Shown here: one piece after another, positions 1-11,299 of the stretch
Numbering within the stretch: position 1 is the first letter of the stretch
How the letters are laid out: each line of letters starts with the position of its first letter
Source: an uncultured Thiodictyon sp.
GTDB taxonomy: Bacteria; Pseudomonadota; Gammaproteobacteria; Chromatiales; Chromatiaceae
Assembly (NCBI RefSeq): GCF_903837595.1
Contig: NZ_CAILVI010000494.1
Location: forward strand, 2,551-66,550
DNA: 64,000 nucleotides
Reading direction: 5' to 3'
Position numbers and translations under genes: made by a program
Notes under the pieces: generated by a model
Database searches by the model: none
Seen by the model: the letters and a program-made list of their open reading frames with translations, nothing else
What the model was told of the DNA's origin: nothing

Positions 1-775
1 CCGCCGCCGCGCGCAGCCCGGCAAACAGCGCCTTCACGCCGGCACAGTCATAGTCGGTCTGGGGCCATTTGAAGTAGCCACCGCAGGGCCTGAGGTAAGG
101 GCAGCCGCGGCACTCGGCCCCGTCGGCAACCAGGGTATCGCACCAAGTGGTGACTGACGCCGGCCCCTGGTCGGGTGACACTGTTCCCTGGTCGTCCAGG
201 ATGCGGATCTCGTCCGGGTCTTGCTCCAGGAGCGACCAAAGGCCGAGCGGGGAGTCGTTCAGGAACCCGAGCAACACCGAGTGAAAGGGCTCCACCGGCC
301 GGGCCACCGTGGTGTTATGCAGATAACCGTCGAGAGCCTGCAGGGCCTCAGTGACACCGTCGGGCGTCGGCTGATGGCCGAGCAGTCGGACCGAGAACCC
401 AAGCGAGACGGCCAACTTGACGGCCCGGGCCAGACCGGGCATCAAGGGTATCGTCACCCGCACCGGGTGGCGGTCAATCAAGCCGGTGCAGCGGTAGAGT
501 AAGGGGAGTTCGGTCGCCGGGTCGGCCATGACCAAATCCAGCGCCAGACCGTCGCCCCAATCCGCGAGCGGCGCCAGGTCCTGGGTCAGGTCCGTGACCT
601 GCAGGAACGCCACCTCCGCCGGGACCTCAGGTCCAAGCAGTTGCGGGGCCTCGCCAGGGTCGGCGGTCCGCAGAGCCACCGGGCGTCCTGGAAAGGCGCG
701 AAACAGGGCGACGGGGATATTGAAAAGGACTAAGTCCGGATGGTCCCCGGGAGGGATCGCTGTCTGGTTGGTCAT
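1..775 (-). CDS. SPASM/twitch-like Cys-cluster protein, partial (3' end beyond window edge; not in supplied ORF track)
   Basis: Manual minus-strand translation from ATG at 775 stays open to position 1: MTNQTAIPPGDHPDLVLFNIPVALF...TTWCDTLVADGAECRGCPYLRPCGGYFKWPQTDYDCAGVKALFAGL. The C-x9-C-x2-C-x5-C-GG...C pattern resembles the auxiliary Fe-S (SPASM) domain. No CxxxCxxC motif occurs in the ~258 visible residues. Lies 96 nt downstream of the Gly-rich peptide gene on the same strand. Confidence 0.5.
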   Translation of the reverse strand, partial: MTNQTAIPPGDHPDLVLFNIPVALFRAFPGRPVALRTADPGEAPQLLGPEVPAEVAFLQVTDLTQDLAPLADWGDGLALDLVMADPATELPLLYRCTGLIDRHPVRVTIPLMPGLARAVKLAVSLGFSVRLLGHQPTPDGVTEALQALDGYLHNTTVARPVEPFHSVLLGFLNDSPLGLWSLLEQDPDEIRILDDQGTVSPDQGPASVTTWCDTLVADGAECRGCPYLRPCGGYFKWPQTDYDCAGVKALFAGLRAAA

Positions 776-870
776 GCTTAACTGGCTCCCCGCGGCGCCA
801 GTGCGCGGCATTCAAGGCCGGCACCCGGGACCGCAGTCCCGGTGCCGGCCGGATGGGAATAACGCCTCGC

Positions 871-1221
871 TCAGCGCCGGTTGATCCAACCCCCGCCACC
901 GCCGCCATGGCGGTTGGCCCAACCTCCGCCACCATGGCGGTTGACCCAGCCGCCACCACCACCGCCGTTGCGGTTAACCCAACTGCCGCCGCCATAACCG
1001 CCACCATGGCGGTTGACCCAACCGCCACCACCGCCGCCACGACGGTTAATCCAACCCGCCTCGGCATCCGATTCGGGTAAGGCCAGGCCGCCAAACACGG
1101 CCGCGCCGATCACGATCTTCGACCAGCGGCCCAGTCCGATCAGAAAGCTCCGACGACTATGCAGTTCCTCCTCCGCCGCGTACGCCGCGGGCCCCGGTTC
1201 AGTCATGGATGTGTCGCTCAT
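871..1221 (-). CDS. Tat-signal glycine-rich repeat peptide with six G(n)-W-x-N-R units; putative RiPP precursor
   Basis: SD GAGAGGA sits upstream of the ATG. Twin-arginine motif HSRRSFLIGL is followed by a hydrophobic stretch. The tail is GWINRR GGGGGGWVNRH GGGYGGGSWVNRN GGGGGGWVNRH GGGGWANRH GGGGGGWINRR. Confidence 0.7.
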   Translation of the reverse strand: MSDTSMTEPGPAAYAAEEELHSRRSFLIGLGRWSKIVIGAAVFGGLALPESDAEAGWINRRGGGGGGWVNRHGGGYGGGSWVNRNGGGGGGWVNRHGGGGWANRHGGGGGGWINRR

Positions 1222-1401
1222 TGGTGATCCTCTCAGTCTTGCGGTTTCTCGATGCTAACAGTGCGACCGGCGCCGCGCACCCGGTAACTCTTGTGGGTAC
1301 ACGCCGGATCATGTTCCGCTGAATCACAAAGATCGCCGGAGACGATAGCCGCTGCGCGGGCGGCGCGGCGCGTGACGCCCCCGCCCAGGGGCAGACCGAC
1401 G

Positions 1402-2475
1402 CTACCCCTGAACCAATAGATTACGCAGGTCGATGACCGCCGCGTTGGCCCGCGAGATATAGGACGCCATCACCAGCGAGTGATTGGCCATGGGCCCGAA
1501 GCCGGTGCCGTTTAGGATCATCGGGCTCCAGATCGTGTTCTGGGTATTTTCCAGCTCACGGATGATCTGCTTGATCGACACCACTGCATTCTTGTTCTGG
1601 AGCACCGGGGCGAAGTCGATCTCCATCGCCTTGAGGCTCTGGAGCAGTGCCCAGGTATAGCCGCGCGCCTCGAAGAAATAGTCGTCGATCTTTCGCCAGG
1701 GGGTCTTGGTCCGCGACTGGGCGGGGACCGGCGTCGACTGGCGGGCGTTCGGGTCACCGGCCAAGGCGGTGTCGAGTTGGTTCTGACCCACGGCATAGGA
1801 CAGTCGCTGCCCCAGACTGCCCAGTCGCTTGCTGACCACCTGCAGGTAGGCGGTCAGATTGTCGGCGCGGGCAAAGAACTGACCGTCGTACTGCTTTGCG
1901 TCTGAGAGCCGCCGCAGATAGCGCTGCAGCCACGCAACACCGCTGCGGTACTCAGACTCAGAGGAAGGGAAGATCCAGGACTCGTTGTCGTAATTGAACT
2001 TAGGCTCGGCCTGCTGGAGGTCGGGGTCTTCCACCGATTGACTCTGAGACCGCGCGAAGTCGTTGCGTAGCGCACTGGTCAGGTCGCGCAGCTCGGTCAG
2101 GGCACCGAACTCCCAGTTCGGGATATTGTCCAGGTAGACGCCGGGCGGGGCGATGTCGTTGCTCAGATAGCCGCCGGGCTTGTCCAGCAGGGTCGCGGCG
2201 ATCCCGATGGCCGTGGCCGTGGTCACGGCGCCGGTCACCAACTTGGCCGGGTCGTTGCCGACCAGCTTCAGGGCGTTTTCCCGCACGTCGAACGGGCCTG
2301 GCGAGCGCGACCACAGGACCCCCAGGATCACCACCACCACCAGATAAGTGATCAGAAAAAGCCCCGCAGTCCACCACAGGCCCTTCTCTTTCCAGGTGCG
2401 GGGGTGATACATCGTCACCAGCTTGGCGACGGACTCGGCCAACCGCGGCAGTCGCGCTGACAATGGCTCGTTCAT
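1402..2475 (-). CDS. DUF2333-like membrane-anchored protein
   Basis: Start chosen at the internal ATG (MNEPLSARL) with a GAGGAG SD. One N-terminal TM segment (WWTAGLFLITYLVVVVILGVLW). The YLDNIPNWEFGALTELRDL region is recalled as typical of DUF2333; family assignment is from memory only. Confidence 0.55.
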   Translation of the reverse strand: MNEPLSARLPRLAESVAKLVTMYHPRTWKEKGLWWTAGLFLITYLVVVVILGVLWSRSPGPFDVRENALKLVGNDPAKLVTGAVTTATAIGIAATLLDKPGGYLSNDIAPPGVYLDNIPNWEFGALTELRDLTSALRNDFARSQSQSVEDPDLQQAEPKFNYDNESWIFPSSESEYRSGVAWLQRYLRRLSDAKQYDGQFFARADNLTAYLQVVSKRLGSLGQRLSYAVGQNQLDTALAGDPNARQSTPVPAQSRTKTPWRKIDDYFFEARGYTWALLQSLKAMEIDFAPVLQNKNAVVSIKQIIRELENTQNTIWSPMILNGTGFGPMANHSLVMASYISRANAAVIDLRNLLVQG

Positions 2476-2618
2476 AGGGGCTCCTCTCTTTAAGGTCAGT
2501 GCATTACCGAAGGGATGCAGTGGCACGCCCGGCGCGGTTGGCGACACGGCTGCCGCCGGCGCCAGCCGGGGCGCACTCGCGCAACAGTATATGCAATCGC
2601 GGGTGCGCCGCCGCAATG

Positions 2619-3050
2619 TCAGGGCGCGGGAGGTACCTTCTCGCTCACCGCTTGCCCGACGGTCCCGGCATAAAACACCGCCAGCTTGACCGGCACAGTG
2701 CCGACATTGCGTCCGTTGTGCACGGTGTTGACCACTTCCGCGAGTGCCTGGCCTGCCTCCAGATGGTTCACCAAACCGGCTTCCGTCGTGACCTCCAGGG
2801 TGCCCTGTAACACGAAGGCAAAGGACGGGACCGGGTGCCGATGCCAGCCGGTTTCCCCTCCCGGGGCGATCTCAATCTGCAGCGCGGTAACTTGCGCCGG
2901 CCCGGACGGATAGGCCAGCGGCGCGCCGTTCCAAGTGGTCGTGGTCTTCAGCAAGGGGGTCACCTGCACCGTCGTGCTCGCATCCAGCGCCGCCGCGCCC
3001 CGCACGCCGAGCACCAACGCCAACGCGACGATCGCCGATTGCATCTTCAT
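2619..3050 (-). CDS. Secreted cupin-domain protein
   Basis: Start at MKMQSAIVALALVLG (signal peptide) with SD GGGAGAGG. Cupin motifs GETGWHRHP and NTVHNGRN. Confidence 0.7.
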   Translation of the reverse strand: MKMQSAIVALALVLGVRGAAALDASTTVQVTPLLKTTTTWNGAPLAYPSGPAQVTALQIEIAPGGETGWHRHPVPSFAFVLQGTLEVTTEAGLVNHLEAGQALAEVVNTVHNGRNVGTVPVKLAVFYAGTVGQAVSEKVPPAP

Positions 3051-3307
3051 GTCGTTTGCCTCTCCCATTGAAACAGGACAACAACGCAACTTGACCCGCC
3101 GCTGGCAACGACGGGGTCAGCCATAGACGGCAAGCATAGCCGGTCGGCGGCGGCTGCGCAGGACGACGCGCAGCAAAATGGGTATGATGACCACACTGCG
3201 TGGTCTTTGCGACGGCACCGCGGACGCCAGCCACCTACCAGGGCGGCACCAACGCTCGCCCCTTGCCTGCCGCCACGCGCCCTGTCGCCCCGCCCGCCGG
3301 ACCTCAG

Positions 3308-4234
3308 ATGCCTTCGACCGACCCGACCCTGCCGCCTGCATCCTATGTCACGGGCGCACTTTGGGGGCTGTTCGCCATTTCGATCTGGGTGGGCTGGATC
3401 CTGTTGACCCGCTTCGGCGTGACCACCTCACTCTCACCCTTCGATATCACGGCACTGCGGTTCGGCTGTGCCGGTGCGCTGCTATTGCCGATCGTCATCC
3501 GCCAAGGGTTCGCGGTGCGCCAGGTCGGCCTGCCGCTCTTGGCGGTGATCTGTGCGGGCGCCGGGGTGCCCTATGTACTCATCGCCTCCGGTGGACTGCA
3601 ATTTGCGCCGGCCGCCCACGCCGGTGCACTGATCCCCGGCACCATGCCCCTGTGGACCGCGGCGCTCGCGATGCTCTTTCTGCACGAACCGATTTCGGAG
3701 TCGCGTCGGGTCGGGCTGCTGTTGATTCCGGTCGGCATTGTGATCTTCGTCGGCGCCGGTCTGACCGACTTCGCCGCGGGCTGGTGGCGCGGCCACCTGC
3801 TGTTTCTCCTGGCGGCCCTGTGTTGGGCCAGCTTCACGGTGGCCATGCGCCGCGCCGGAGCCAAGGGTTTCACGGCATTACACGCCGCCGCCGTCGTCTC
3901 AGTCGTGTCCGCGGCCTGGTATTTGCCGGTCTACGCACTGTGGCTGCCGCACCGCCTGGCCGCCGCACCCTGGAGCGCACTCATCATCCAGACTGTCTAT
4001 CAGGGCGTGTTCGTGGCGATCGTTTCGCTGTATGCCTACACCAGGGCGGTCGGCATTCTGGGGGCCTCGTTGGGCGCCAGCTTCGCCTCACTGGTCCCGG
4101 TGCTGGCGATGCTGGCGGCGATACCGCTGCTCGGTGAAACGCCCAAACCGGTCGATTACATCGGAATTGCGGCGGTCACCTTAGGTGTTTTTTTGTCCAG
4201 CGGCGCCTATCAGGCAATGGCTAGGCGGCGCTGA
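3308..4234 (+). CDS. DMT/EamA-family transporter
   Basis: About ten hydrophobic segments forming two EamA-like halves. Start set at ATG 3308 (MPSTDPTL) ahead of the first TM segment. Confidence 0.8.
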   Translation: MPSTDPTLPPASYVTGALWGLFAISIWVGWILLTRFGVTTSLSPFDITALRFGCAGALLLPIVIRQGFAVRQVGLPLLAVICAGAGVPYVLIASGGLQFAPAAHAGALIPGTMPLWTAALAMLFLHEPISESRRVGLLLIPVGIVIFVGAGLTDFAAGWWRGHLLFLLAALCWASFTVAMRRAGAKGFTALHAAAVVSVVSAAWYLPVYALWLPHRLAAAPWSALIIQTVYQGVFVAIVSLYAYTRAVGILGASLGASFASLVPVLAMLAAIPLLGETPKPVDYIGIAAVTLGVFLSSGAYQAMARRR

Positions 4235-4430
4235 GACGGGACGCCGCCCGCAGCGCACCTGGTTTGCCTAGCCCGGGCCAACACCCGATAATAATCGGTT
4301 TGCCAGGCGCTGAGGTGTCCGGGGTTGCGGCCGCGGACGCCTAACCGCGCGTTTGCGCGGTTGTCTGGCCGTCGCCGGACACCCAGTTGCCGGATCAATC
4401 AGGCCGAAAGGTCCCGTCGAGGAAGACTGC

Positions 4431-5300
4431 ATGCAGCAAGCAAGCGAATCCACACCCGAGTCCAGGCCCAGTGATGCACCCTGCTGCGCGCCGGGCATCG
4501 CCGACGTGCAGGCGAGTGCGGACACCCGCCGTATCGCCATCGACCGGGTCGGAATCAAGGATATCCGCCACCCGGTGCGGGTGCGCGACCGCGGCGGCCT
4601 GGAGCAGCACACGGTGGCCAACTTCAACATGTACGTGTACCTGCCCCACAATTTCAAGGGCACGCACATGTCACGCTTCGTGCAAATCTTAAACAGCCAT
4701 GAGCGCGAACTGAGCGTGGATGCCTTCACAGAGATGCTCAAGGAGATGTCCGCCCGGCTGGAGTCCGCGGCCGGCCATATCGAGATGCGCTTCCCCTTTT
4801 TCGTGAACAAGCGCGCGCCAGTGACCGGTGTCGAGAGCCTACTGGACTACGAGGTGACCTTCATCGGCGAGATCCGCGACGGCGTCCCGACCCTGGAGAT
4901 CAAGGTAGTGGTGCCGGTGACGAGCCTCTGCCCCTGCTCCAAAGAGATCTCCGCCTACGGCGCCCACAACCAGCGCTCGCATGTGACGGTGCAGGTGCGC
5001 ACCCGCGGCTTCATCTGGATCGAGGACATCATCGAGCTGGTGGAGCGCGAGGCCTCATCCGAGCTCTATGGGCTATTGAAACGCCCGGACGAGAAATTCG
5101 TCACCGAGCACGCCTATGACAACCCCAAGTTCGTGGAAGACATGGTGCGCGACGTGGCCACCCGCCTCAATGCCGATGAGCGGGTGGCGGCCTATGTGGT
5201 GGAGTCCGAGAACTTCGAGTCGATCCACAACCATTCCGCCTATGCACTGATCGAGCGCGACAAAGAGGCGGAGGCGCGGATCGCGGAGGCGTCGCTCTAA
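4431..5300 (+). CDS. folE2: GTP cyclohydrolase FolE2 (type IB)
   Basis: Matches recalled FolE2/MptA hallmarks: [54 protein letters not shown] 4431 follows a GAGGAAG SD. Confidence 0.9.
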
Positions 5301-5836
5301 GCATTGCAATCCGGGTGACTTCGTCGCGCCTGGGGGCCGCGCCTACCGCCGCAGCAGCGGTCCCCAGGCCGCGACGGGTGGTCGCAAGGCGTTGGGCCTG
5401 CCGCCGGAAAGCCAAGCCATGGAGGGCTTGGGCGGGACCGCTGTCACGCGACCACCCATCGCCTACCCCGCCAGAGGCAAGAATAAGACCAGACCATTAT
5501 CGTTGGTCATTGGTGCTGCTCGCTTTTTCTGACGCGTAAAGGTTGCCAAGCGCGCTCAACCCTGATGTAAACGGGGGCGTTCAGGTCCCCGCGCCGGGTT
5601 GGACGGCCTAAGCCGCTGCACCATCCGTCGCTGACCCGGTGCCATTGGCAGTGCCGAGCCCATCAAGACCGGCTGGCCGGGACCACTGCAAACAATAGAT
5701 GTAGCACGCAGCCAACGACACGCGCAGCGAGGGGGATGAGTCATGTCCGTCCGATCTGTTTGGCACCGTTCTATGCAGGGCACCCGATACGCCGGAGCCA
5801 TCGGCTTCTGTTCGATCATGGTCCTTTGCCTGACGC

Positions 5837-8800
5837 TTGGCGGCGCCCTGGTGCGGACGGAATTCGCTCGCGGTGGCCGCAACACCGGCGGTGACCGAGC
5901 AGGCGCTGCGCGATCGGGTCTCGATCGCTGGGTGGGTGCAGGTGCGGGTGGACCTGAACGCACCGGCAGGCGCCGCGGTGCCCCCCCTGCCGGCCGACTG
6001 GGACCAGGCGGCGCAGGACCTGTTGCTCGGATTGACCGCCGGGTCCTACGACTCGCCGCTGCATGTGCCGGGCGAGGCCAGCCTTACGGTGCGGGTCAAT
6101 GCCACTGCGCTGAACCAGCTGCTGACCTCGCCTCTGGTGGCGGCGGTTGCCGCGGGGGGCAATGCGGATATGCGGCGGTTGGCTGCTGGGAACGTACATA
6201 GCCTGTTTATCGACGCCACTGGCGACCTGTGGGCCTGGGGGGATAATTGGTATGGCCAGCTCGGCGATAATACGACCACAAACCGCGAAAGTCCGGTTCA
6301 TGTGCTAACCGACGTCGCGGCCGTGGCGGCCGGGACTTTCCACTCCCTGGCCATCAAGACCGACGGCAGCCTGTGGGCCTGGGGCAATAACGCGAATGGC
6401 GAACTCGGTCACGACACTGGGATCAATAGTCTAGTTCCGGTCCAGATTATGACCGGGGTTGTGGCCGTGGCGGCCGGACATAATCACACGCTGGCAATCA
6501 AGAGTGATGGTAGCCTGTGGGCGTGGGGATCGAATACATGTGGCAAGCTTGGTATCGCCACGAGTACGGGGCTACCCGCCCAGGTCATGACCGGGGTTGC
6601 GGCCGTGGCGGGCGGAGCGCCATACACGCTGGCAGTCAAGACCGATGGCAGCCTGTGGGCCTGGGGGTGCAACTTGGCTGGCTCGCTCGGAGACGGCACG
6701 ACTACGGATAGTCTGATTCCGATCAAGGTCCTGACCGGAGTTGCGAACGTGACGTCTGGGGGGGGCGACAGCTTCGCCGTTATGACAGACGGTAAACTGT
6801 TGGCCTGGGGGGCGAATAACTCAGGCCAGGTCGGTGACGGTACGATCACGACTAGCCCGAATCCGATCGAGGTCCTAACCGGAGTCGTGGCCGCAACCGG
6901 AGGAAAACAAGATCATACCCTGGCCCTGAAGACCGACGGCAGTCTGTGGGCTTGGGGGTCCAACGCGGTTGGCCAACTTGGCGTTGGTGCCTTCGACAAT
7001 GGGATCCACCCGACCACCCCGGTCCAGGTAATGACCGGGATCGCGGCTATGGCGGCTGGGGGGTTCCACAGCCTTGCCTTGACGACAGACGGTCAACTCT
7101 TGGCCTGGGGGTTTAATCCCGGAGGTCAGCTCGGTGACGGTACGACGATCGATCGTTCGAGTCCGGGGGGCGTCCGCAGATTTGGTCAACTACCCGACTT
7201 TGTGGTCGCCAGTGTCTTACTGACGCCTGGTAGTCCGAGTATCAACGGCACCTTCAGTGCCGATGTGACGGTGACGAACCAGGGCATGGTGGTCGGCGAG
7301 CCGGGGACACTCCAAATCTGGGCCAACGAGTCCGCGCCGCAGGGCTGCCCGGCCCTGGGCGATCAAGCCGCGACCCTGAGGCGTCTCGCGGTGGACGAGA
7401 GCCAGACCGTTACCTTTAGCCTGTCGTCGGGGGTCGGTGGCCCCAAGATGCTGCGCGCCTTCATCAACAGTGACTGCTCAGTTGCGGAGGCCGACACCAC
7501 CAACAACCAGACCGTCCAGTCCTACACGGTCGTGGCCCCCGATTTCGTGGTAACCGCCGTCACCCTGACGCCGAGCAGCCCAAGCGCCAATGGCACCCTC
7601 GACGCCGCGGTGACGGTAACGAACCAAGGTATGGCCCCCGGCAATCCGGGGACACTCCGGGTCTGGGCCGACCAGACCGACGCGCAGTTCTGCGGCGCGG
7701 TGGGTGACCAATCGGCGACGCTGCCGAGCCTCGCGGTCGGCGAGAGCCAGACGATCACGGTCAGCGGTCTGCCGGCAGGTGTGGCCGGCGCCAAGACCCT
7801 GCGCGCCTTCATCGATAGCCAATGCCAGACCACGGAGAGCGACGAGACCAACAACCAGCAGGCCACCCCCTACACCGTGGTGCCGCAGGACATCGACCTG
7901 GCAGTGAGCGCGGTGGTGTTGAAACCGCGCAGCCCGGTGCCTGGCGGGACCTTCGACGTCAGTGTGACGGTGACCAACAAGGGCACGGTGGCCACCGCGT
8001 CCGGGGCGCTGCTCCAGGTCTGGGCCGACCAGTCCGCGGTGCAGGACTGTGGCGCCATCGGCGACCAATCCGCCACCCTGCCAAGCCTGGCGGCGGGTGC
8101 CAGCCAGTCCGTCACCTTTACCGGTCTGCCGGCCGGTGCGCTCGGGGCCAAGACCCTGCGCGCCTTTGTCGACAGCGCTTGTGCGACCCCGGAAACGGAG
8201 GAGGCCAACAACCAGAGCGCGACGGCCTATCACGTGTCGGCACCGGCCCCTGACTTTTCGGTGAGCGAGATCGTGGTCAATCCGCATACCGCACCGGTCA
8301 ATGGCACCTTCGAGGCCAAGATCACGGTGACCAATGGGGGTACCGCGGATGGGGCGGCAGGAACCCTGCAAGTATGGGCCGATCAACCCGCGGTGCAGAC
8401 CTGCGGTGCTGTCGGCGACCAGTCAGTCGCCCTGCCGACCCTGGCGGCGGGTGCCAGCCAGACCTTTACCGTCACCGGCCTGCCTGCCGGCGCGCTCGGG
8501 GTCAAGTCCCTGCGCGCCTTTGTGGACAGCGCCTGTTTGACGGCAGAGACCGACGAGACCGACAACCAGACGGTCATCGGCTATCCGGGCGGCAATGCGG
8601 ATATGCGGCGGCTGGCGGCGGGTTGGGGGCAGAGTCTGTTTATCGATGCTGCCGGCGACCTGTGGGCCTGGGGGCAGGGTGTTGCGGTCGGTGACGGCAC
8701 TTGGAACAATCGCTCGAATCCGGTCCGCGTCCTGACTGGGGTCGCGACCGTCGTGTCGGGAGAGGCTCATACCGTCGCTCTCAAGACCGACGGTAGTCTG

Positions 8801-11299
8801 TGGGCTTGGGGGGAGAACGCGCATGGTCAGCTTGGCAACGGTCAGCTTGGTGACGTCATAACCGCGAGTCAGTTGACTCCAGTCAAGATACTCACGGGAG
8901 TCGCGGCCGTGGCGGCCGGTGCCTATCACACCCTGGCCCTCACGACCGACGGCAAGCTTTGGGCCTGGGGTTGGAACTGGTGTGGCCAAGTCGGCGACGG
9001 AACGACCACGGATCAGCCGAGCCCCGTTCTCATCCTGACCGGGGTCGCGGCCATGGCGGCAGGTGCTTACCATACATTGGCCATCAGGACTGATGGCAGC
9101 CTCTGGGCCTGGGGGAATAACACCTATGGTCAGCTCGGTGGCGCCACGAACTACGACAATCAAGCGACTCCGATCCAGGTCCTGAGCGGGTTTGCGGCCG
9201 TGGCAGCCGGTAGTAATTACAGCCTGGCACTCACGCCTGATGGCAGCCTGTGGGCCTGGGGGTACAACGGGGCTGGCGCACTCGGCGATGGTTCAACCAC
9301 GTATCGAGGCACTCCGGTCCAGGTTCTAAGCGGGGTTGCGGCCGTGGCGGCCGGTGCTGCTCATACCCTGGCGCTGAAGCCCGACGGCAGCCTGTGGGCA
9401 TGGGGTTGGAATGCATATGGCCAACTCGGCGACGGCACGACCACGAATCGTCTGAGTCCGTTGCAGGCGCTTAGCGGGGTCGCGGCGGTAGCGGGCGGCT
9501 CTAGCGCTCACACCCTGGTCCTCACGACCGACGGTAAGCTCTGGGCTTGGGGTTCGAATGCGTATGGCCAACTCGGCGACGGCACCACCACGGATAACGC
9601 CAATCCGGGAAAGGTCCTCGGGATCGGTCAGATGCCCGACTTCGTGGTTACCGGGATTTCGTTGCCGCTCGGCAGCCCGAGTGTCAACGGTTATTTCGAT
9701 GTCGATGTCACGGTCAAGAACCAGGGTACGGCGGCCGGGGAGCCGCGGACCCTCCAGGTCTGGGCCGACCAGGCGGGCGCCCAACCCTGCGGTGCGGTGG
9801 GGGATCAAACGAGCACCCTGTCGCCCCTGGCGGTGGGCGCGATCCGGACGGTCAGCTTCAGCGGCCTGTCGGCGGGTGCGGCTGGGGCCAAGACCCTGCG
9901 CGCCTTCATCAACAGCGCCTGTTCGGCTGCGGAGAGCGACACCACCAACAATCAGACCACCCAGCCCTATACGGTCGTGGCACCCGATTTCATCGTGACC
10001 GGCGTCACCCTGACTCCAGCCAGCCCAAGCGCCAACGGCACCTTCAGTGCCGCGGTGACGGTGACGAACCAGGGTACGGCTGCCGGCAATCCGGGGGCAC
10101 TCCAGGTCTGGGGCGACCAGACCGGCGCGCAGTTCTGCGGCGCCGTGGGTGACCAATCGGCTGCTCTGCCGAGCCTCGCGGTTGGCGAGAGCCAGACCGT
10201 CACGGTCACCGGTCTGCCCGCAGGTGTCGCCGGCGCCAAGACCCTGCGGGCCTTCGTTGACAGCGCCTGCCAGGCGTCAGAGGCCAACGAGACTAACAAT
10301 CAGTACGCCAAGGCCTATCCGGTATTCGGCCCCTCGGCGGTCGAAGAATGTCAACAGTTCGGCACCGTCCCCGTGATGCAAGGGGAATATAGTGTCCAGA
10401 ACAATGTGTGGAACGCGACGACTACCCAATGTGTAAAGGTCGACCCGACGGTCGCGGGTTTCGCGGTGTCACAATCGGCGCACAATGCCACCACGGTCGC
10501 TTCTTACCCATCGATTTTTCGGGGATGCCATTGGGCCACTTGTACGACCAATAGCGGCATGCCGGTGGCGATCGGCAGGATCGCCAGGGCGCCCTTTAGC
10601 TGGAGCGTCACGCCCGCGCCCTCCGTCACCGGAAATATCGCGGCCGAGGCCTGGTTCAGTCCTCGCCAGGCACCGGATGCGCAACTCGGCTATGACGGCG
10701 GCGGCGAATTGATGATTTGGCTCGATTCCAACGGCATGGTGCCAAGCGGTACGCGGGTTGCTACGACGACCATCGGCGGCGCCACCTGGGAGGTCTGGTA
10801 TGACGCACCCAACGCGGGGCGTAACTGGCAGTACATCGCCTACCGGCAGCCGCAGCGGGTGACTGCCGTCAATCTCGATCTCAATGACTTCATTAGGGAT
10901 GCCTTGGCGCGCGGGTATCTGGATCGCTCCTGGTACTTGCATGATCTGGAGGCGGGCGAGGAGATCATGTCGGGTGGTGCCGGCTTCGCGACCGATGCCT
11001 TTTCATTTGTCACCACCAACCTCAACAGCTACGCCATCACCGCCAGCGCCGCGCCCGCAGCAGGCGGCGTGGCAAGCTGTACGCCCAACCCGGTGGACGA
11101 GGGCAGCACGAGCCTCTGTGCGGCCACCGCCAACCCCGGTTATGGCTTCGCCGGTTGGCGCGGGGACTGCGCGGGCCAAGCCGGAAGGACTTGCACCTTG
11201 AGCAACATCACTGCCGCGAAGGCCGTCACGGCGACTTATGTCGATATGGCGCAGGCACTGCCCGGCCGCGCCGGTTGGCGCGCAGTTGTGGGACCATGA
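5837..11299 (+). CDS. Giant mosaic surface or secreted protein: RCC1 repeats, 4 CARDB, RCC1 repeats, 2 CARDB, GH12-like domain, InlB B-repeat-like domain
   Basis: Two RCC1 blocks (repeated GxLWAWGxNxxGQLGDGTT), each opening with GGNADMRRLAAG. Six CARDB-like units (PDFVV..L.P.SPS.NGTF...VTVTNQG...NNQ). GH12-like segment with GGGELMIWLD and LEAGEEIMSGGAGF. C-terminal GYGFAGWRGDC InlB-B-repeat-like unit. The listed start is a TTG; the true start is uncertain (see finding). Confidence 0.8.
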   Translation: MAAPWCGRNSLAVAATPAVTEQALRDRVSIAGWVQVRVDLNAPAGAAVPPLPADWDQAAQDLLLGLTAGSYDSPLHVPGEASLTVRVNATALNQLLTSPLVAAVAAGGNADMRRLAAGNVHSLFIDATGDLWAWGDNWYGQLGDNTTTNRESPVHVLTDVAAVAAGTFHSLAIKTDGSLWAWGNNANGELGHDTGINSLVPVQIMTGVVAVAAGHNHTLAIKSDGSLWAWGSNTCGKLGIATSTGLPAQVMTGVAAVAGGAPYTLAVKTDGSLWAWGCNLAGSLGDGTTTDSLIPIKVLTGVANVTSGGGDSFAVMTDGKLLAWGANNSGQVGDGTITTSPNPIEVLTGVVAATGGKQDHTLALKTDGSLWAWGSNAVGQLGVGAFDNGIHPTTPVQVMTGIAAMAAGGFHSLALTTDGQLLAWGFNPGGQLGDGTTIDRSSPGGVRRFGQLPDFVVASVLLTPGSPSINGTFSADVTVTNQGMVVGEPGTLQIWANESAPQGCPALGDQAATLRRLAVDESQTVTFSLSSGVGGPKMLRAFINSDCSVAEADTTNNQTVQSYTVVAPDFVVTAVTLTPSSPSANGTLDAAVTVTNQGMAPGNPGTLRVWADQTDAQFCGAVGDQSATLPSLAVGESQTITVSGLPAGVAGAKTLRAFIDSQCQTTESDETNNQQATPYTVVPQDIDLAVSAVVLKPRSPVPGGTFDVSVTVTNKGTVATASGALLQVWADQSAVQDCGAIGDQSATLPSLAAGASQSVTFTGLPAGALGAKTLRAFVDSACATPETEEANNQSATAYHVSAPAPDFSVSEIVVNPHTAPVNGTFEAKITVTNGGTADGAAGTLQVWADQPAVQTCGAVGDQSVALPTLAAGASQTFTVTGLPAGALGVKSLRAFVDSACLTAETDETDNQTVIGYPGGNADMRRLAAGWGQSLFIDAAGDLWAWGQGVAVGDGTWNNRSNPVRVLTGVATVVSGEAHTVALKTDGSLWAWGENAHGQLGNGQLGDVITASQLTPVKILTGVAAVAAGAYHTLALTTDGKLWAWGWNWCGQVGDGTTTDQPSPVLILTGVAAMAAGAYHTLAIRTDGSLWAWGNNTYGQLGGATNYDNQATPIQVLSGFAAVAAGSNYSLALTPDGSLWAWGYNGAGALGDGSTTYRGTPVQVLSGVAAVAAGAAHTLALKPDGSLWAWGWNAYGQLGDGTTTNRLSPLQALSGVAAVAGGSSAHTLVLTTDGKLWAWGSNAYGQLGDGTTTDNANPGKVLGIGQMPDFVVTGISLPLGSPSVNGYFDVDVTVKNQGTAAGEPRTLQVWADQAGAQPCGAVGDQTSTLSPLAVGAIRTVSFSGLSAGAAGAKTLRAFINSACSAAESDTTNNQTTQPYTVVAPDFIVTGVTLTPASPSANGTFSAAVTVTNQGTAAGNPGALQVWGDQTGAQFCGAVGDQSAALPSLAVGESQTVTVTGLPAGVAGAKTLRAFVDSACQASEANETNNQYAKAYPVFGPSAVEECQQFGTVPVMQGEYSVQNNVWNATTTQCVKVDPTVAGFAVSQSAHNATTVASYPSIFRGCHWATCTTNSGMPVAIGRIARAPFSWSVTPAPSVTGNIAAEAWFSPRQAPDAQLGYDGGGELMIWLDSNGMVPSGTRVATTTIGGATWEVWYDAPNAGRNWQYIAYRQPQRVTAVNLDLNDFIRDALARGYLDRSWYLHDLEAGEEIMSGGAGFATDAFSFVTTNLNSYAITASAAPAAGGVASCTPNPVDEGSTSLCAATANPGYGFAGWRGDCAGQAGRTCTLSNITAAKAVTATYVDMAQALPGRAGWRAVVGP

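Follow-up and report, generated by a model that had tools for sequence, protein, structure and literature searches.

At the left edge of the window, the 64,000-nt stretch of uncultured Thiodictyon sp. DNA analysed here, lie the first two genes of a widespread three-gene operon (1..1221, minus strand) that encodes, in this order, a precursor peptide, a pseudo-radical-SAM protein, and a radical SAM (rSAM)/SPASM maturase. All features of this operon are on the minus strand. Taken as a whole, the locus is best explained as the source of an exported, cross-linked, triceptide-like RiPP (a peptide made on the ribosome and modified after translation) that would use a twin-arginine translocation (Tat) signal as its leader, a reading that we hold with slightly better than even confidence. 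It starts from observed gene order, conservation, folds, and motifs.

Operon layout and distribution

The precursor gene (871..1221), taken from the list of open reading frames (ORFs) and its translation, encodes 116 aa plus a stop codon. As the original prediction from the window had it, the gene is preceded by a good Shine–Dalgarno sequence, GAGAGGA (1228..1234, read from the sequence), 6 nt ahead of the ATG at 1221. That prediction also described an unlisted downstream ORF open to the window edge, which we likewise found: it starts with the ATG at 775, 95 nt after the peptide stop, and its first 258 codons lie within the window (1..775). The truncated product is 100% identical to P0001, a 273-aa hypothetical protein of an uncultured Thiodictyon sp., and therefore only 15 residues fall beyond the edge.

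The true maturase had been suspected to the left of position 1, and a radical SAM/SPASM gene is indeed located there. The metagenome contig L001 is identical to the window over 874/874 overlapping nt and reaches 205 nt past its left edge. On this contig the 273-aa gene ends with ...AATGG*, followed by 6 nt and then by MGARVFSLILLPTLQCNADCDYCFEDK, which is the N-terminus of P0134, a 380-aa radical SAM protein of uncultured Thiodictyon with the motif CNADCDYC. A second contig encoding the identical 273-aa protein has a 380-aa PF04055 gene 7 nt downstream, and the trio of peptide, 273-aa protein, and rSAM genes is likewise present in L002 and L003.

The distribution of the system was assessed by a scan of one genome per species, which returned 133 confirmed loci, 80 of them kept. 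Only the phmmer-based calls of rSAM and SnoaL were used for neighbouring genes; neighbour clustering gave spurious clusters of antisense or overlapping ORFs in high-GC DNA. The 80 loci came from Chromatiaceae, Competibacteraceae, Acidobacteriota (Pyrinomonadaceae, Blastocatellia), Syntrophobacteraceae, Accumulibacter, and others. Essentially every locus whose DNA reached far enough upstream had a co-oriented peptide gene of the same layout immediately before the 273-aa gene (L082 alone was a clear exception), so that peptide and pseudo-enzyme are almost always adjacent across these 80 species genomes. The rSAM gene was directly downstream in 37/37 loci outside Competibacteraceae.

In 37 loci (L002:9114-9578, L003:9092-9595, and 35 more), the peptide gene is immediately preceded by a co-oriented SnoaL_3/SgcJ-EcaC-like gene, the product of which (~155–190 aa) has its own Sec-type signal peptide. 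The hosts of this gene are Chromatiaceae, Acidobacteriota, Syntrophobacteraceae, and four Competibacteraceae, and it accompanies most rSAM-linked loci; it is absent from the Thiodictyon window and from L007. The protein may be a periplasmic fourth component.

Leader and core of the precursor peptide

Residues 1–55 of the precursor form a leader or Tat-type signal, and residues 56–116 form the core. The acidic N-region, twin-arginine motif, hydrophobic stretch, AEA, and six-unit Gly-rich tail described in the original prediction are all present in the translation. The core (874..1056) comprises 61 aa arranged as six G(n)-W-[IVA]-N-R-[RHN] units and is strongly cationic, with 48% Gly, 8 Arg, 7 Asn, 6 Trp, 3 His, and no acidic residues. 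All six Trp residues (6/6) are followed by x-Asn-Arg, each within a W-[I/V/A]-N-R unit, and six W-x-N were reached in 0/100,000 composition-preserving shuffles of the core. At the DNA level, the core is a tandem array with a period of 33 nt and 5.5 copies (878..1057). An exact-sequence look-up of the peptide returned no record, and Pfam and NCBIfam scans of the 116-aa product gave no match.

We compared the core with 33 distinct homologous peptides linked to rSAM genes. The residue at W+1 is V, I, A, or L, that at W+2 is Asn for 98% of the Trp residues, and position W+3 holds Arg (57%) or Gly (31%). Apart from Trp, the Asn two residues on, and this Arg/Gly, the core has no conserved side chains. 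This pattern strengthens the earlier proposal of a triceptide-type motif. The Competibacteraceae peptides have W-Y-N-R-P-like units, with Asn at W+2 in 61%. Cationic peptides rich in Trp and Arg often act on membranes or polyanions; genes for immunity or for export across the outer membrane were not linked to the peptide loci.

Gly/aromatic-rich envelope proteins are generally known, and the modification of this peptide is a prediction; the product might accordingly be an ordinary, unmodified Gly-rich structural protein, exported or membrane-anchored, with rSAM genes nearby by coincidence. We consider this very improbable: the W-x-N register is strictly conserved, the peptide and pseudo-enzyme genes are neighbours almost without exception in three phyla or more, and gene order and strand are conserved with the rSAM gene outside Competibacteraceae. 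A sulfur-globule-type structural protein was rejected as a candidate because the peptide family occurs in Acidobacteriota and Competibacteraceae as well.

Three Chromatiaceae-type precursors (L035:1564-1869, L036:622-933, and the L038 peptide upstream of 5764-6852) have a Cys pair (G-C-C-R-G-G) in the first Gly spacer, and the other peptides have none.

The leader (1057..1221) consists of an acidic n-region, SRRSFLI, a conserved LGRWSK, an h-region, and a cleavage-type site, AEA. The twin-arginine motif SRRSFLI (1138..1158, read from the sequence) begins at S22. In the 116-aa product, the hydrophobic stretch (WSKIVIGAAVFGGLALP / IVIGAAVFGGLALP) is followed by AEA at residues 53–55, and the order S-R-R-S-F-L-I, IVIGAAVFGGLALP, A-E-A corresponds to a Tat-type layout. 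The h-region is moderately hydrophobic and rich in Gly/Ala. Residues R23, R24, F26, W33, and S34 are invariant in 23 diverse homologous leaders, and the leader is more strongly conserved than the core. In keeping with a Tat-like leader, a homologue from Acidobacteriota (L032) scored 20.8 bits (E 3.6e-4) on the TIGR01409 TAT_signal_seq model, above the cut-off of 16.7; the leader of the window peptide itself did not match this model.

Following the RR motif and ahead of the h-region, the leader has an invariant (K/R)-W-S that does not belong to the Tat consensus; we read it as a putative recognition element specific to this system. Tat-dependent export and signal cleavage of the peptide are likewise predicted from the leader sequence. 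Neither the 273-aa protein nor the rSAM has a signal peptide, and therefore modification would be cytoplasmic and export post-translational. Post-translational export is what Tat is suited for.

The pseudo-radical-SAM protein and the radical SAM/SPASM enzyme

The 273-aa protein is best described, according to its structural model and alignments, as a pseudo-radical-SAM/SPASM protein that has the maturase fold with neither the SAM cluster nor AuxI. The C-terminal part of the window ORF reads C212-x9-C222-x2-C225-x5-C231-GG-x10-C244, and CxxxCxxC is absent, as had been noted. The earlier comparison of this Cys pattern with a SPASM-like motif held up with one refinement: C222, C225, C231, and C244 are invariant in 35 homologues (43–83% identity), whereas C212 does not belong to the conserved set. 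No conserved Cys precedes residue 222 in the family. His103, several Trp, and several acidic residues are also common to the 35 homologues, His165 is found in at least 90% of them, and H103, H165, E162, and D186 are invariant or nearly so in the family. The four invariant Cys codons (C222-x2-C225-x5-C231-GG-x10-C244; 44..112) specify a predicted single [4Fe-4S] site equivalent to SPASM AuxII, and the protein thus probably holds one [4Fe-4S] cluster.

Sequence models did not recognise the protein. It has no Pfam or NCBIfam match (PF04055 included), P0001 did not match the SPASM models TIGR04085/PF13186, and the family profile retrieved only noise from PDB sequences (E > 0.8). The best NCBIfam matches, seen for a single homologue (P0068), were SPASM (E 0.062, 13.7 bits vs a cut-off of 27) and HxsC (E 0.1). 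Neither Pfam, NCBIfam, nor the PDB profile search placed the product of 775..1 in a well-characterised unrelated family.

The AlphaFold2 (AF2) model of the 273-aa protein (pLDDT 91.3, pTM 0.87) has alternating beta/alpha elements followed by a helical tail that bears the Cys residues. In a Foldseek search with this model, the best PDB matches were three ChlB chains (including 9gmc_A; E 2.4e-4 to 1e-3, TM 0.54–0.56), and the next were generic TIM-barrel aldolases (TM < 0.35). Comparison with the operon rSAM family by hhalign aligned residues 100–263 with 186–375 (E 5e-5, probability 67%), placing ECRGCPYLRPCGG on DCIDCDFLALCHGGC and DYDC on DPHC, with CxxCx5C...C in register. Both methods thus agree with the rSAM/SPASM-like character that had been proposed for the ORF. 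In detail, C222/C225/C231/C244 align with C322/C325/C331/C353 of the rSAM, and those with C317/C320/C326/C348 of the anaerobic sulfatase maturase (anSME), which are reported to be the AuxII ligands (Goldman et al. 2013), with C330 as an AuxI ligand. The position of this AuxI ligand (anSME C330; four residues after the third Cys) is Phe235 in the 273-aa protein.

The third gene encodes a compact, RRE-less rSAM/SPASM enzyme of the anSME/cyclophane-synthase/daropeptide clade that forms a new subfamily. Its family has an invariant C16-x3-C20-x2-C23 and a complete, invariant set of SPASM Cys residues (C254, C260, C276/C278, C322, C325, C331, C335, C353), and the orthologs of L002 and L003 scored 48–56 bits on the TIGR04085 SPASM model (cut-off 27). 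The best NCBIfam models included many Trp-cross-linking/cyclophane maturases (DynA, DarW, DarE, GrrM/OscB, AmcB, YhhB, XyeB) in addition to anSME. The scores were 125–135 bits for DynA (cut-off 450), 118–138 for the anaerobic sulfatase maturase model (349), 110–122 for DarW (650), 80–98 for DarE (650), 78–84 for GrrM/OscB (TIGR04261; 310), 63–66 for AmcB (425), 46–54 for YhhB (445), 45 for XyeB (450), and 40–47 for FxsB (370). Against solved structures, the family profile matched anSME (E 3.5e-26) and ChlB (E 1.5e-8), and the AF2 model (pLDDT 85) superposed equally well on both (TM 0.77–0.81).

The equal closeness of the rSAM to anSME in sequence and fold, and the failure to reach any cyclophane family cut-off, could also indicate a chemistry other than triceptide formation, such as another Trp–Asn connectivity, a daropeptide-like ether bridge, epimerisation, or an anSME-like oxidation. 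This seems distinctly unlikely, since the core keeps only Trp, Asn at +2, and Arg/Gly at +3, with no Cys/Ser for formylglycine, and since related enzymes have been shown to act on W-x-N (PMC11002830). Formylglycine-type oxidation in particular was rejected because the peptide has no conserved Cys or Ser.

An exhaustive profile search with the 273-aa family recovered representative clusters at the 50% identity level, 454 of them with E <= 1e-3 and 311 with E <= 1e-10; the proteins are mostly ~270 aa long. Natural fusions were found of the pseudo-enzyme with an HxsC-like rSAM domain (P0338, P0353, P0397), with a HemN-like rSAM (P0313), and with DUF483 plus a methyltransferase (P0331, P0357). Two diverged clusters, L089 and L091, retain the leader in upstream small ORFs (TRRGFLTKWSKLVLG, RRQFLNGLGKWS, RREFFNGLGKWS), one of them with the segment RRGFLTKWSK, and the cores are wholly different, consisting of W-N-K-W-(R/K)-P-P repeats in one cluster and being non-repetitive in the other. 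L090 and L091 still have DynA/anSME-like rSAM/SPASM genes; in L089, no rSAM was seen other than the HxsC-like domain that forms a fusion with the pseudo-enzyme. Wherever this can be checked, the constant parts are the leader and the pseudo-enzyme domain, and the core and the accessory enzymes vary. These results suggest, therefore, that the pseudo-enzyme recognises the leader.

We tentatively propose, with less than even confidence, a RiPP platform spanning at least three phyla and 454 clusters, in which the Tat signal would double as the leader and the dead, AuxII-only paralogue would be a leader-recognition/Tat-proofreading subunit that presents varied cores to one or more rSAM enzymes ahead of Tat export of the cross-linked product.

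The 273-aa protein might instead be an enzyme or a redox partner, acting as an Fe-S electron acceptor/donor in cross-linking or introducing a second modification of the core. Its four invariant Cys align with a [4Fe-4S] site, H103, H165, E162, and D186 are (nearly) invariant, and its gene adjoins the peptide gene even where the rSAM gene is unlinked. We nevertheless regard this role as rather unlikely, since both auxiliary clusters are already provided by the complete SPASM domain of the rSAM, and the 273-aa domain is fused to several unrelated enzyme types and follows the constant leader, not a given core, a pattern more typical of a recognition module. Another possibility is hitch-hiking on Tat, with the peptide as a signal-bearing carrier and the Fe-S 273-aa protein co-exported for a periplasmic function. 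Proteins loaded with cofactors and signal-less partners are typical cargo of Tat, peptide and 273-aa protein form an invariant pair, and the latter probably binds an Fe-S cluster, as judged from its Cys residues. This idea is highly doubtful, because the 273-aa domain is fused to cytoplasmic-type rSAM and methyltransferase domains, the Gly-rich 61-residue tail would be an odd carrier, and the arrangement has no known precedent.

The three diverged clusters are located at L089:4421-4777 and L089:5001-6767, at L091:1552-2327 and 2615-8361, and at L090:126-3120. They have up to four rSAM genes per cluster.

Proposed pathway and relation to known systems

In the triceptide-like pathway that we favour, the 116-aa peptide would be made in the cytoplasm, and its leader, RRxFL..LG(K/R)WS plus the hydrophobic stretch, would be bound by the 273-aa protein. 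The latter would be a degenerate paralogue of rSAM/SPASM maturases that has lost the SAM-binding cluster and AuxI and kept the AuxII-type four-Cys site; as a non-catalytic recognition or scaffold subunit, it may hold the Tat signal until maturation is done. The anSME/ChlB-like rSAM/SPASM enzyme would join every Trp of the core to C-beta of the Asn at +2, a chemistry that we infer because of the motif conservation and the enzyme class. The product would contain six three-residue cyclophanes, with a loss of 2 Da each, as made by OscB/GrrM on Gly-rich repeat peptides (PMC11002830). The modified peptide would leave by Tat, with the signal predicted to be cut after AEA, and a Gly/Trp/Asn/Arg peptide of 61 residues and a charge of about +8 would be freed into the periplasm.

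Several points weigh against this pathway. The rSAM belongs to no named NCBIfam family, falls far below the cut-off of every named cyclophane family, and stands equally close to anSME, an enzyme that forms no cross-links. The window leader does not match NCBIfam TAT_signal_seq (TIGR01409), and two of its residues that lie past the RR motif and before the h-region, R32 and K35, are charged. A catalytic or redox role of the 273-aa protein would also agree with its invariant Cys, His, and acidic residues. In the 43 Competibacteraceae-type loci, no rSAM gene was found in the downstream DNA (up to 6 kb; 6–1,700 nt in seven of them), and therefore the peptide and pseudo-enzyme may sometimes work without an rSAM. 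In the Competibacter genome CP065007, no rSAM ortholog was seen among the best 120 of ~1,000 matches in either search.

At the family level, the presence of an rSAM ortholog in Competibacteraceae is established: it is 64% identical and solitary at another site. In Candidatus Competibacter denitrificans (L086-L088:8001-9149), this rSAM/SPASM gene is solitary and is neighboured by a divergent gene for a 699-aa TPR-like protein and by enoyl-CoA hydratase genes. A second precursor beside the unlinked Competibacter rSAM gene was considered and rejected, as no precursor-like ORF was found nearby.

Among the closest described layouts is that of GrrA/OscA1 and GrrM/OscB (TIGR04260/TIGR04261), in which a precursor of ~100–125 aa with an extremely Gly-rich C-terminal half and W-x-N units is encoded next to an rSAM/SPASM maturase without an RRE domain. 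OscB/GrrM forms links from Trp-C7 to the C-beta of Asn/Asp (PMC11002830). The GrrA-type likeness put forward in the original prediction holds for the Gly-rich W-x-N layout but not for family membership: the window peptide did not match TIGR04260, its L002 homologue reached 17.1 bits (E 0.006) against a cut-off of 31, and the rSAM stayed far from the TIGR04261 cut-off. Because these scores are below the family cut-offs, the peptide and the rSAM are not members of GrrA/GrrM. The present system further differs in its twin-arginine leader, in its obligatory extra pseudo-rSAM gene, and in its hosts, which are Chromatiaceae, Competibacteraceae, and Acidobacteriota, whereas those of GrrA/GrrM are cyanobacteria.

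ChlB (PDB 9gm3/9gmc) is a radical SAM multiple cyclophane synthase: a single precursor receives several three-residue cyclophanes from it. Of the structures matched by the 273-aa protein, ChlB ranks first (E 2.4e-4, TM 0.55), and it is also a top match of the operon rSAM (TM 0.77). Unlike ChlB, a single active enzyme that binds its own leader, the present system encodes separately an inactive look-alike without CxxxCxxC and AuxI. By sequence and fold, the closest solved relative of the rSAM is anSME (PDB 4k36-4k39), which is also compact with a seven-Cys SPASM domain; however, anSME converts a sulfatase Cys/Ser to formylglycine, the peptide here has no conserved Cys/Ser, and the rSAM scored well below the cut-off of the anSME model. 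DarE, DarW, and DynA, which are among the top-scoring NCBIfam models for the rSAM, cross-link Trp in short motifs, and a shared origin of three-residue cyclophane enzymes and daropeptide maturases has been reported (PMC12912966). The rSAM remains far below their cut-offs, and their products are short single-motif antibiotics that have neither Gly-rich repeats nor Tat leaders nor pseudo-enzyme partners.

The concept of a paired or degenerate rSAM has counterparts in HxsB/HxsC (His-Xaa-Ser), GeoRSP (an rSAM plus a SPASM-only protein), and the TIGR04347 pseudo-SAM/SPASM protein. What they have in common with the present system is either a tripeptide-repeat precursor with a pair of rSAM-like proteins or the absence of the SAM cluster from such a protein, and HxsC-like rSAM domains are fused to the pseudo-enzyme in diverged relatives. 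The 273-aa protein nevertheless matches none of these models, and those precedents are known from annotation only. Its proposed role would be analogous to that of PqqD/RRE domains, TorD, NapD, and DmsD, as a small dedicated binder of a leader or signal until modification or cofactor insertion is done. These known binders are winged-helix proteins or all-helical chaperones, unrelated in fold to the rSAM-like barrel with half a SPASM domain seen here.

We conclude that the system would work like a triceptide (GrrA/GrrM-type) pathway outside those families, and we regard it as a good experimental lead, not as a categorically new system. No paper describing a natural RiPP with a twin-arginine leader was found in full-text literature searches, and we found no description in the searchable literature of a Tat-type leader combined with an obligatory pseudo-rSAM partner. 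If the proposal is true, the operon would provide a natural precursor with a Tat-signal leader, coupling cytoplasmic radical chemistry to the export of a cross-linked peptide. It would also provide a recognition partner of a new kind, not an RRE/PqqD domain but a pseudo-enzyme that arose from the maturase fold, and this natural "AuxII-only" protein could serve to study the AuxII cluster, the role of which is unclear (PMC9012708). The family would then represent a large, untouched set of probable poly-cyclophane peptides in environmentally important bacteria, namely purple sulfur bacteria, Competibacteraceae that accumulate glycogen in wastewater plants, and Acidobacteriota of soil. Neither the peptide nor its partner is recognised by any curated model, and therefore the loci carry the annotation hypothetical protein.

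Within the 95 nt that separate the peptide gene from the following one, 15 base pairs with one bulged G form a GC-rich hairpin (816..850). Folding of the RNA of 776..880 gave a minimum free energy of -60.4 kcal/mol (z -2.8). Many rSAM-linked loci, with gaps of ~100 nt, have comparable long stems 3' of the peptide gene, whereas the Competibacteraceae loci, with gaps of ~20 nt, have none. The hairpin is probably an attenuator or mRNA stabiliser, and it fits the usual attenuation that gives a high precursor-to-enzyme ratio.

Upstream of the peptide operon, the window encodes a DUF2333 protein (1402..2616, minus strand; PF10095, E 1e-167) and a cupin with a signal peptide (2619..3089, minus strand; PF07883), neither of which recurs beside the system in other genomes. 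Farther along, a 1820-aa ORF (5837..11299, plus strand), unrelated to the peptide operon, has two RCC1-like 'WAWG.N..GQLG' repeat blocks that alternate with ~120-aa repeated modules ending in a conserved Cys pair, followed by a C-terminal domain.

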